A DNA stretch of 64,000 nucleotides from an uncultured bacterium (GTDB lineage: Bacteria; Zixibacteria; MSB-5A5; CAIYYT01). The notes beneath the pieces are model-generated. The model was not told where the DNA came from. It did not search any database and saw only the letters and a program-made list of their open reading frames with translations. The position numbers and the translations under genes were made by a program. The DNA is taken from positions 256,001 to 320,000 of the forward strand of contig CAVSCK010000005.1 in assembly GCA_963726455.1 (NCBI GenBank), written 5' to 3'. The first letter of the stretch is position 1; each line of letters starts with the position of its first letter. Below are positions 2,700 through 5,502 of this stretch, piece by piece.

Positions 2700-3830
2700 A
2701 TGAGAAGGATTTGCCTGCTACTGTTGTCTGTGGCCGCTTTTCTCTTTGTTACGAATCCGTTGTCAGCAGCCGAAACCAAGTTTAGTGGCGTGATTTTCGG
2801 CAACTGGACACTGCATCTTAATGACCAGGGGCTGTCGAAGAATTACAATTACTTCGATATCACACGCGCCCGTCTGATCGTCGATCATCAGTTTAGTGAC
2901 AAGTATTCCGCCAATATGATGCTTGACCTGGTCCCGCGCGACACGGCAGATCCCAGCGCCGATCGATTCGGCCTGTCATATCGTTTACGTTCCGCCTACA
3001 TCCAGGGCGACAAGCTCGTCCGCTATACCACGTTCCGCCTTGGTCTGCAGGGAATTATGTGGTTTGACAAGCTGGAGAATTTCTGGGGCCTGCGCTATAT
3101 CGATAAAGTATCTTTGGACAAGTTTGGTTACCTCGACCGCGCCGACTTCGGCGTTAGCGCCATTATGGATTGCCCGGGCAACTATGGTACCGTAGCACTT
3201 CAGATCTTCAACGGTTCCGGCTATGCCGGTCGCGAGGCAAATCGGAACAAGGATTTTGTCGGCTTCGCGTCGTTCAACCCCATGCCCAAGAATCCTGACT
3301 TCGGCGAATCCAGTGTTTGGTTCCAGTATTACAAGGGCTGGCCGAACATTGCAAACACTGCCCCTGCCGGTGAAAGCTTCCATTCCATTACCAAGAGAGA
3401 CCGTTTGCAGCTAGCGGGCGCCTTCAAGTACCGTAAGTGGGCGACCGCAGTAGCGGAATACTTCCATACGTCGGATGACAATATTCCGACTAATCTTCCG
3501 GGTAACCTAGACGTGCAGAAAGCCAAGGGCGTGTCGCTGCTGGGCAAGCTGAATGTTGCCACTGCGGAGTCCTGGCTTGCCAGAGTCTATATTTTCGCCA
3601 AGTATGATTGGATCGATAAGAACTTGCAGCTTGACAAGTCGCTTGAGCCGTTTGCCTCGCAGGCGGGCGACGCGCGCGGCATTATCGGCGGTGTCGGTTA
3701 CGAGCCGGTCGACGGTTTGAATATCGCCTTGTCAATTTCGCGTTTGACCACCAAGTTGAACGATCGGAACATAGCCGTCGTGGAAGACGAAAGAAACTCG
3801 TTCGTCTTCAATTTCAGCGCAGCTTTCTAG
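2700..3830 (+). CDS. Outer-membrane beta-barrel porin-like protein
   Basis: Signal peptide, RARL and RLRSAY porin-type strands, alternating amphipathic strands and a C-terminal Phe. Confidence 0.7.
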   Translation: MRRICLLLLSVAAFLFVTNPLSAAETKFSGVIFGNWTLHLNDQGLSKNYNYFDITRARLIVDHQFSDKYSANMMLDLVPRDTADPSADRFGLSYRLRSAYIQGDKLVRYTTFRLGLQGIMWFDKLENFWGLRYIDKVSLDKFGYLDRADFGVSAIMDCPGNYGTVALQIFNGSGYAGREANRNKDFVGFASFNPMPKNPDFGESSVWFQYYKGWPNIANTAPAGESFHSITKRDRLQLAGAFKYRKWATAVAEYFHTSDDNIPTNLPGNLDVQKAKGVSLLGKLNVATAESWLARVYIFAKYDWIDKNLQLDKSLEPFASQAGDARGIIGGVGYEPVDGLNIALSISRLTTKLNDRNIAVVEDERNSFVFNFSAAF

Positions 3831-3850
3831 ATTCTCAATCAGGTGATACC

Positions 3851-3887
3851 AAAAGGCCCGGTCAGATTTGACCGGGCCTTTCTTTTT
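3851..3887 (+). terminator. Rho-independent terminator after the porin gene
   Basis: AAAGGCCCGGTCA-GATT-TGACCGGGCCTTT followed by CTTTTT. Confidence 0.85.
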
Positions 3888-3890
3888 GAG

Positions 3891-3924
3891 CAAAAAAAGA
3901 GAGCGGCAAGTGCGCTCTCTTTTG
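3891..3924 (-). terminator. Rho-independent terminator for a minus-strand transcript
   Basis: Minus strand reads AAAAGAGAGCG-CACTTGC-CGCTCTCTTTTTTT. Confidence 0.8.
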
Positions 3925-4058
3925 ATGGGAAATAGTCCTGACCCTGTCGTCAGGTCTTCCTTAACAAAACTTGGCTAAATATCAGTGACAGACCCTGTCG
4001 CCTGCCCACTCGTCTTGTCGCTGTTCCCTCCTAGCAAAATGTGAACGTGCTCCCCCGT
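3891..4058 (-). ncRNA. Candidate sigma54-dependent small RNA (~170 nt) with repeated GACAGG hairpin loops
   Basis: Bounded by a -24/-12 promoter and a terminator; two stems share the loop GACAGG; no convincing ORF. Confidence 0.55.
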
Positions 4059-4068
4059 TATCTATGCA

Positions 4069-4084
4069 TGCAAATTTCGTGCCT
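4069..4084 (-). promoter_or_regulatory. Sigma54 (-24/-12) promoter
   Basis: Minus strand AGGCACGAAATTTGCA is GG-N10-GC and matches TGGCACG-N4-TTGC at all but the first base. Confidence 0.7.
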
Positions 4085-4211
4085 CAGAGTTTGCACTCGG
4101 AGTCAAGATACTGATACAATGAGAGTTAGATGCAGAGGGAGGGTTTGGTCACCGACCCGGTTTTCCCAGGAATGTATGCAAAAGCGACGCTGTCTTTCAC
4201 ACTTGCCTGAA

Positions 4212-4227
4212 TTGTCATGCATGACAA
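4212..4227. promoter_or_regulatory. Perfect 16-bp palindrome, candidate enhancer-binding-protein site
   Basis: TTGTCATGCATGACAA, ~130-145 bp upstream of the sigma54 element. Confidence 0.45.
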
Positions 4228-4360: not shown

Positions 4361-4789
4361 TTACTTGAACAGGGCTTTGATCTTGCCCCAGGTGGACAGG
4401 CGGACATCCAGAGTGGTTTCGACGCGCAGGTCAATCTTGAGGTTGTCTGCAGTCGGCGAGAACGTGGGCTTGGCGTTTCGCCCGTTCAGCTTGACCTGTA
4501 TTACGTCGGCGATTGACCGATAGCCCTTTATATCGGGCCTGGAAGGGTCGTATTCGGGAATGCGAAGTTCAAAATTGCCGTTATCCTGAGTTTGCACCTC
4601 GGTGATCTTGTCCTCGCCAATGAATGCAGTCAAAGGCAGGCCCTTGTCGGCAGGGCGACCAAGGAATTGAATGGTGCCGGTTACGATGCAGACATTGGTA
4701 AAGAACAGCGCCTTGGCAGCCGCTGAACAGAGTAATGCCAGCATCAGGCACAAAACTACAACTTTGAAGCGCTTTAAGGAATGCGTAAT
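4361..4789 (-). CDS. Small secreted protein with C-terminal TWGKIKALFK motif (probable ATT start)
   Basis: AGGAG-5 nt-ATT yields the signal peptide MTHSLKRFKVVVLCLMLALLCSAAAKA; beta-rich body. The track start at 4849 falls inside a -35 box. Confidence 0.7.
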   Translation of the reverse strand: MTHSLKRFKVVVLCLMLALLCSAAAKALFFTNVCIVTGTIQFLGRPADKGLPLTAFIGEDKITEVQTQDNGNFELRIPEYDPSRPDIKGYRSIADVIQVKLNGRNAKPTFSPTADNLKIDLRVETTLDVRLSTWGKIKALFK

Positions 4790-4820
4790 GACTGCTCCTG
4801 CAACTAATCTCCCCTGGTAC

Positions 4821-4849
4821 AAATTACGTGTATGTCCAAAATGTGTCAA
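4821..4849 (-). promoter_or_regulatory. Putative sigma70 promoter for the 4361-4789 gene
   Basis: TTGACA-17 nt-TAATTT. Confidence 0.55.
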
Positions 4850-5502
4850 GTTTTTTTGCGATCGGTCCGGCGGGGCAAATTGTTAACCAGCGAAAATGAC
4901 AGGTACTCCAGTTCCATCGCCATATTCTCGGTGCGAATAAACACATCGTCCGGAACTTTCAACTTGATGGGTGCAAAGTTGAGAATGGCTTTGATCCCGC
5001 AATGCACGACATGGTCTACGATTGCCTGCGCCGATGACGCCGGCACGGCCAATATGACCATCTCGATCTTATTCTCGTTTAGTTGCCGCTCAAGGTCGTC
5101 CATACCCAACACGGTGATGCCCTTGTGATTGGAGCCGATCTTGCGCTGGTCATTGTCGAACAGAATCTTGATATTGAACCCCTGCCGGGAGAATTCCTTG
5201 TAGGATACGAGTGCCGAACCGATATTTCCCACGCCTACCAAGGCTACGCTCCAGGTGCGGTCGATCCCGACGATGCGGGCGATCTTTTCTTTCAATTCCC
5301 TGACCGGATAACCCAGACCACGTGTGCCGAAAGAGCCAAAGAACGACAGATCTTTGCGAACTTGAGCCGGAGTCAGCTTTTCGCGGCGCGCCAATTCCTT
5401 GGAGGAGATGGTGTCGAAGTGTTCACGCTCCAACTGGGTCAGGGCACGGTAATAGTGAGAAAGTCGCTGAATTGTTGACTCAGATATTTTGCGTTCTTTC
5501 AT
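4846..5502 (-). CDS. rex: Redox-sensing transcriptional repressor Rex
   Basis: RLSHYYR, QVRKDLSFFGSFGTRGLGY, VGVGNIG and ILNFAP motifs. Confidence 0.97.
   Translation of the reverse strand: MKERKISESTIQRLSHYYRALTQLEREHFDTISSKELARREKLTPAQVRKDLSFFGSFGTRGLGYPVRELKEKIARIVGIDRTWSVALVGVGNIGSALVSYKEFSRQGFNIKILFDNDQRKIGSNHKGITVLGMDDLERQLNENKIEMVILAVPASSAQAIVDHVVHCGIKAILNFAPIKLKVPDDVFIRTENMAMELEYLSFSLVNNLPRRTDRKKT

Follow-up and report, generated by a model that had tools for sequence, protein, structure and literature searches.

The window, by which we mean the whole 64-kb stretch of DNA that was analysed, carries a predicted small RNA gene on its minus strand between two protein-coding genes that face each other. 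We refer to the window's genome as G000; it belongs to a family of 21 genomes in genera g1 to g5. A preliminary description of this region had reported, on the minus-strand reading, a palindrome, a -24/-12 promoter element, two stems that present the loop GACAGG, a third variant of the motif (CGACAAG) and a terminator at 3924-3891. All of these are found at the positions that it gave, the promoter with the exact GG-N10-GC spacing and the terminator with both hairpin arms and its run of T. They are listed here together with the neighbouring genes:

4846-5502, minus strand: rex, a rex-type redox repressor gene, beyond the gene for the 162-aa protein
4361-4849, minus strand: upstream neighbour, encoding a 162-aa protein with an N-terminal signal-like segment
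4212-4227, strand-neutral: perfect palindrome of 16 bp, TTGTCATGCATGACAA, ~130-145 bp upstream of the -24 element
4084-4069, minus strand: sigma-54-type -24/-12 promoter AGGCACGAAATTTGCA, GG at 4083-4082 and GC at 4071-4070 in GG-N10-GC spacing
4058-3891, minus strand: predicted small RNA of ~168 nt, the 5' two thirds of which are specific to genus g1
4020-4014, minus strand: CGACAAG variant
4006-3987, minus strand: hairpin 1, with a 7-bp stem (GGCAGGC and GTCTGTC) and the loop GACAGG
3954-3937, minus strand: hairpin 2, with the stem CCTGAC and GTCAGG and the loop GACAGG
3954-3943, minus strand: family-wide inner hairpin CCUG-ACGA-CAGG, an alternative fold of the hairpin 2 region
3935-3923, minus strand: seed CUAUUUCCCAUCA, predicted to be single-stranded, between hairpin 2 and the terminator
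3923-3892, minus strand: intrinsic terminator of the small RNA, an 11-bp hairpin with arms 3923-3913 and 3905-3895 and a T run to 3892
3848-3886, strand-neutral: second, bidirectional terminator hairpin, common to the small RNA side and the convergent gene
2700-3830, plus strand: convergent downstream neighbour, encoding a 376-aa protein with an N-terminal signal-like segment

Neither the 162-aa nor the 376-aa neighbour protein matched a Pfam or NCBIfam family. In genus g1 rex is the second gene upstream of the small RNA, and in G010 it sits ~1 kb downstream in another arrangement; its proximity to the small RNA gene is possibly neighbourhood conservation only. The bidirectional terminator hairpin follows directly after the small RNA's own terminator. 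A simple terminator scan missed 3924-3891 and flagged as terminator-like both GACAGG hairpins and, at 3852-3881, this bidirectional hairpin. The two GACAGG sites each lie within an exact 10-nt direct repeat, CGACAGGGTC. Folded as a whole, the 170-nt RNA is not unusually stable (z -1.44). Its start near 4058 is predicted from the usual spacing to the promoter, ~12 nt after the -12 element.

In order to see how far the element extends beyond this genome, a covariance model was built from the conserved core and run on the family genomes and on the class. Exactly one copy per genome was found in 19 of the 21 family genomes (4/4 in g1, 13/13 in g2 and 2/2 in g5), and the model had no match in G005 (g3) or G006 (g4). 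At the DNA level, 73% identity extends over 4044-3891 in the three other g1 genomes, and in genus g2 only 3942-3891, the last ~52 nt, is conserved. The predicted length of the RNA follows the same division, with ~170 nt for g1 and ~90 nt for most g2 genomes, the 5' part being variable. The family architecture is thus made up of a GG-N10-GC promoter, a variable 5' part, a small hairpin, the CUAUUUCCCAUCA stretch and a covarying terminator. The most conserved stretch of the RNA is the seed, whose columns are invariant or nearly so in the family alignment. The covariation analysis that had been proposed for this RNA gave a divided answer. The terminator stem covaries, with 97% of cells in the helix paired across 12 copies and three pairs changed on both sides, whereas support for the inner hairpin is weak, its covariation score being reached by 27 of 500 shuffles; G010 does carry a compensatory CCCG/CGGG version of this hairpin. 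The neighbourhood of the small RNA is kept in genus g1 and is different in g2, and because the flanking genes differ between genera we take the small RNA to be an independent gene.

The preliminary description had called the RNA undescribed, which agrees with the Rfam scan of the window, where there were no matches at the gathering threshold; the best sub-threshold matches were terminator-only, to other small-RNA families. In the class outside the family the covariance model gave weak matches in 20 of 130 genomes (best E 8.6e-4). Seventeen of these matches, from 14 genomes, were inspected and rejected as family members, all being terminators after ORFs without seed plus promoter. Among the 80 loci listed by a degenerate seed-pattern scan of the genome contigs, most were chance matches; three were real, and these added no further genomes. 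One of the inspected covariance-model matches, in another family of the class (L176 in G054, 1501-1572 on the minus strand), has a hairpin, a seed-like CUAUUCCAAUCAAG and a terminator, with no sigma-54 promoter within 120 nt, and could be a distant relative or a chance occurrence.

Sigma-54 promoters have a -24 GG and a -12 GC with exactly 10 bases between them, in a TGGCAC-N5-TTGC-like context. In the 64-kb window GGCAC-N5-TTGC is observed once against 0.76 expected from shuffles, so that the match taken alone is not significant; what gives it weight is its conservation. Of the 19 family copies, 15 have a strong GG-N10-GC ahead of the conserved core, at a distance that varies. The -24 element is weak in the G012 and G013 copies. 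In g5 neither copy has a convincing sigma-54 promoter, and both directly follow an ORF. The position weight matrix scores of 20.5-23.7 are circular, because the 12 promoters that they describe are the ones from which the matrix was built. The presence of rpoN, named earlier as a check on a sigma-54-dependent transcript, is confirmed by one Sigma54_DBD match of 197 bits in the window's genome, which also has 20 strong Sigma54_activat matches, that is, sigma-54 activator genes. No enhancer-binding-protein gene was found adjoining the small RNA.

A promoter match that is expected about once per window, and g5 copies that directly follow an ORF with no clear sigma-54 promoter, are also what would be seen if there were no independent RNA gene here, and the conservation were that of an untranscribed intergenic region or of the 3' end of an upstream transcript. 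We consider this quite improbable. The promoter spacing is exact in those 15 copies while both the core distance and the flanking genes vary, the terminator covaries, and the upstream genes in g2 have terminators of their own. The claim that a separate, terminator-ended small RNA gene stands behind the -24/-12 promoter is thus upheld by the recurrence of promoter, core and terminator in relatives, and from these sequence comparisons we conclude that the element is very probably a real and so far undescribed sigma-54 small regulatory RNA.

What might activate this promoter is less clear from the sequence upstream of it. The palindrome of the window is a possible activator site, its role being unproven; the three same-genus relatives do not keep it, and the sequence that aligns with it there is non-palindromic. 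It was rejected as a Rex operator, since its half-site spacing differs from the Rex consensus and the palindrome is not conserved. The palindromes upstream of the promoter in genus g2 differ from that of the window. At the g2 loci L006-L013, the inverted repeats GTCCG-N5-CGACG and TGTCG-N7-CGACA and a conserved GTTTGTAAT block are seen ~75-150 nt upstream of the -24 element, with TGTCG-N7-CGACA sitting 77 nt upstream of the g2 promoter. This last repeat occurs 19-27 times per genome compared to 3-6 times for a reversed control (~5x), and among 15 loci examined, which cover a minority of the 116 sites, a sigma-54 promoter follows it only at the two small RNA loci. It was rejected as a regulon-defining activator site, being too common genome-wide.

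The preliminary description had also noted the lack of a good ORF, and this holds: within the small RNA a single ORF of at least 20 aa is present, a TTG frame of 20 codons at 4037-3975. The frame is open in the same-genus copies, as it would be if the region encoded a small peptide. We regard such a peptide as extremely improbable, given that no ribosome-binding motif precedes the frame, that the changes between copies are mostly non-synonymous in an alignment read by eye, and that the region is missing from the ~90-nt form of the RNA in genus g2.

What did not survive comparison with relatives is the function originally proposed, in which the RNA titrates an RNA-binding protein via repeated GACAGG hairpin loops, like CsrB/RsmZ or CrcZ. 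In the window's genome itself the pattern is as described. The motif CGACAGGGUC is present twice and the CGACAAG variant once, the minimum-energy fold places both copies in hexaloops, and the genome has one gene for CsrA. The repetition is not conserved, however. In the three same-genus relatives the stem of hairpin 1 is kept and its loop reads ACTAGC, so that the GACAGG loop is found only in the window's genome, and hairpin 2 in the same relatives is missing its 3' arm. The g2 form of the RNA does not have hairpin 1, and most relatives have one copy of GACAGG. Nor is the placement in a loop general, for in 8 of the 17 hairpin-bearing copies only CCYG-N3/4-CRGG can form, which leaves GA in the loop and CAGG in the stem. 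The GGA motifs in the small RNA are few and not conserved, and the reading as a CsrA sponge was rejected on that ground; Hfq, which CrcZ titrates, was not found in the window's genome, and we know of no protein that binds GACAGG. It is the seed, and not the loops, that is the conserved part of the RNA. Titration of a protein by these loops is therefore very improbable in our view, and GACAGG seems, from its complementarity, to matter as an antisense element against CCUGUC in the leader of a target mRNA.

This leader belongs to an unlinked gene on another contig. The leader is ~140 nt long (~235 nt in g5), and its predicted first 12-16 nt are complementary to the seed at 3935-3923, at the following site:

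Contig C3 of the window's genome (G000), 820068-820080: seed-complementary site, at the predicted 5' end of the leader

Across the family, the small RNA and target loci are on different contigs or 105-111 kb apart. A TTGACA-16/17-TATATT promoter, scoring 11/12 in the window's genome, ends 5-7 nt before the site, which is therefore predicted to form the first bases of the leader. The site is present in all 17 of the leaders recovered, with seed-site duplexes at z -2.1 to -5.9 and no more than 9 of 300 shuffles as good, and three genera keep it amid diverging leader sequence. It is mostly invariant, with wobble-compatible changes, some distal mismatches and one both-sided change, seen by eye in G012. 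Searching the 21 genomes for exact 13-nt matches to the seed complement returned 17, made up of nine small RNA genes, seven copies of the same leader and one match elsewhere, so that 7 of the 8 non-self 13-mers fall on the orthologous leader. With up to one mismatch there are 82 matches in the family genomes compared to 17 for a reversed control.

In G006, an 89% complete genome, the syntenic leader (Aminotran_5, NifU, promoter, HYR gene) is shorter and lacks the site, and this genome has no match to the small RNA. The target ortholog was not located in G004, G020 or G005; the G020 gene is apparently cut by a contig end, and three near-matches in G005 are uninformative. One further site in G005 was noted: ~330 nt upstream of an adhesin-type gene (L248, G005:C65), paralogous or orthologous to the target, there is a TTGACA promoter-like site, and the transcript predicted to start there would open with a local hairpin, with AUGGG:CCCAU pairing in cis, followed by a UAUACUU motif as in the leaders.

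Within the window's genome alone the leader stands out far less. A naive seed-complement search finds 75 sites of at least 10 nt, about the number estimated for chance. By duplex energy of a 17-nt seed the leader site is about 15th of 18,969 candidate sites, and when the GC-rich hairpin is included in the duplex it ranks 260th of 6,642, which is not discriminating. Among the top ~13 non-self sites nine were checked, the leader and eight others, and the leader is the only one free of an ORF. Inspection of other near-matches yielded no second target. Long open frames contain the exact non-leader match as well as nine of 11 inspected one-mismatch matches (of ~50), and the remaining two have no promoter-plus-leader context. 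The target leader itself has no Rfam match. On contig C4 of the same genome, outside the window, two 42-nt tandem-repeat arrays flank a short gene at ~1165870-1166600 (L037). The arrays have 2.6 and 8.6 copies with 92-95% matches, their units hold a GC-rich palindrome, and their sequence suggests a repeat of the REP type that surrounds a transposase-like gene; one of them has an 11-nt match to the small RNA seed, within chance expectation.

Both RNAalifold and single-sequence folds predict that the leader site forms part of the 5' arm of a hairpin at the very 5' end of the mRNA. The 3' arm of this hairpin holds two conserved motifs, CUUAUUU and CCUGUC, the latter being the complement of GACAGG. 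A second helix between small RNA and leader, of 8-13 bp, can be drawn in 12 of the 17 genomes if G-U pairs and at most one bulge are allowed. In the window's genome this helix has only 6 bp and is no better than shuffles (z 0.2). The bases beside GACAGG:CCUGUC fall into classes that pair, namely AU:AU in G001-3 and G017, GUC:GAC or GUC:GGC in G010, G016, G008, G015, G011 and G018, and AC:GU in G012 and G013. Cognate pairs are no better than non-cognate pairs for the second helix as a whole, and conservation of CCUGUC could also be accounted for by the leader's own hairpin. Further helices are lineage-specific (ACAUUCC with GGGGUG or GGAAUGU, and AGUCC with GGACU), distal lineage-specific ones are seen in G008, G015, G012 and G013, and the g1 relatives have an extra helix of AAGUAGA with UCUACUU.

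These observations bear on whether the small RNA, real as it may be, has its main function elsewhere, its complementarity to the leader being a relic of common origin, for example as an inverted copy of the 5' hairpin of the leader, or the product of two motifs that are each conserved independently. In the reverse complement of the core the motifs follow one another in the order seen in the leader hairpin, several sites inside ORFs of the window's genome pair as well by energy, and cognate partners are not favoured for the second helix, all of which speaks for such a reading. A relic would be harder to reconcile with a site that is kept in three genera despite diverging leader flanks, with the joint loss of site and small RNA in G006, or with the both-sided changes beside GACAGG:CCUGUC between loci that are unlinked. 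Moreover, the one exact and 11 one-mismatch matches that were inspected contain no other conserved intergenic site. On balance we find a main function elsewhere unlikely.

We instead favour the reading in which the element is a trans-acting antisense small RNA that acts on the leader of a giant surface-protein gene, and not a protein sponge; it is the best explanation of the sequence data and one in which we have moderate confidence. The small RNA would be transcribed by sigma-54 RNA polymerase under the control of an enhancer-binding protein. Its single-stranded seed would then pair with the first 12-16 nt of the unlinked leader, in the 5' arm of the leader hairpin, and in most genomes the GACAGG region would bind the 3' arm, such that an RNA-RNA duplex replaces the hairpin.

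As for the consequence of this pairing, the ribosome site is more than 100 nt away from the pairing site, and blocking nt 1-22 of the leader leaves its predicted accessibility unchanged, which points to control of mRNA stability. A hairpin at the 5' terminus is a classic protector against 5'-end-dependent decay. The window's genome has RNase E/G and RNase III, and gave no match to the RNase J C-terminal domain (RNase_J_C). The likely outcome would thus be a change in mRNA stability rather than direct blocking of the ribosome site. Repression is slightly favoured as the direction of this change, either because RNase III would cut the duplex or because the protective hairpin would be lost; alternatively, the intermolecular duplex could keep the 5' end of the mRNA protected.

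The target gene encodes a giant secreted surface protein, the ORF of which runs off the contig end in the window's genome. Its ortholog in G011 has 1683 aa, and profile matches identify HYR, Big_9 and CarboxypepD_reg domains as well as a T9SS type A sorting domain (33.2 bits compared to a cut-off of 23). An N-terminal match to cohesin is weak, its 21.4 bits falling below the cut-off of 24.1. The cohesin-like N-terminal module belongs to a large paralogous family, with 5-23 matches per genome in G005, G006, G004, G020 and G012.

The antisense reading can be taken one step further, as a tentative proposal that we think somewhat doubtful as a whole. On a signal passed through sigma-54 and its enhancer-binding protein, the small RNA might invade both arms of the leader hairpin like a clamp and so switch the stability of the mRNA for a T9SS-sorted, cohesin-like scaffold. 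Such a clamp may have originated as an inverted copy of the leader hairpin and would work without Hfq. If so, the display of the lineage's surface machinery, of cohesin-dockerin type, would be coupled to an environmental signal.

To our knowledge, hardly any regulatory RNAs are known from this uncultured lineage. Should the antisense reading be correct, the element would define a new small RNA family that comes with its promoter type and a specific target, backed by conservation and partial covariation. It would tie the expression of a giant type IX secretion surface protein to sigma-54 signalling, and it would be a case of control at the extreme 5' end of an mRNA, in an organism in which Hfq and the RNase J C-terminal domain were not found. 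The small RNA and leader form a pair that can be tested in a heterologous reporter, for which cultivation of the organism is not needed.

A search of the literature on sigma-54 small RNAs in Ignavibacteria, or on base-pairing small RNAs of type IX secretion adhesins, found no such RNA. CrcZ of Pseudomonas is a sigma-54-dependent small RNA. With the CsrB/RsmZ and CrcZ sponges the RNA of the window shares a short motif repeated in predicted loops, in this genome only; it differs from them in that neither the repetition nor the loop placement is conserved, and in that the motif is complementary to the leader of the target. A closer parallel for the proposed mechanism is RoxS-yflS, with which the RNA of the window would share pairing to the first nucleotides of the mRNA, far from the ribosome site, pointing to mRNA stability. 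Rex represses RoxS, which gives protection against RNase J1; rex is also a near neighbour of the small RNA gene in g1 and in G010, perhaps by coincidence. The RNA of the window differs in having a promoter of the sigma-54 type, in a genome that gave no match to the RNase J C-terminal domain, and the 5' end of its target already lies inside a predicted hairpin.

In its gene organization the element resembles known sigma-54-dependent small RNAs. Qrr of Vibrio and GlmY/GlmZ of enterobacteria are reported to belong to this class (PMC3045617, PMC10162802). Qrr, GlmY/GlmZ and CrcZ share with our element a stand-alone gene, a -24/-12 promoter that needs an enhancer-binding protein, and an intrinsic terminator. 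The differences are that there is no sequence or Rfam relationship to these RNAs, that the lineage is another one, in which Hfq was not found, and that no activator gene is adjacent. In addition, there is one dominant predicted target, which would be paired at the 5' end of its mRNA, and not pairing at a ribosome site or titration.

With respect to the kind of target, NcS25 of Burkholderia cenocepacia is reported to repress an outer-membrane porin (PMC10117139). NcS25, a conserved small RNA too, has a single cognate envelope-protein target, with a link to a nutritional signal. It comes from an unrelated organism and has an unrelated sequence, and it differs from the RNA of the window, for which the target would be a T9SS-sorted giant surface protein and the pairing would take place at the 5' end of the mRNA.
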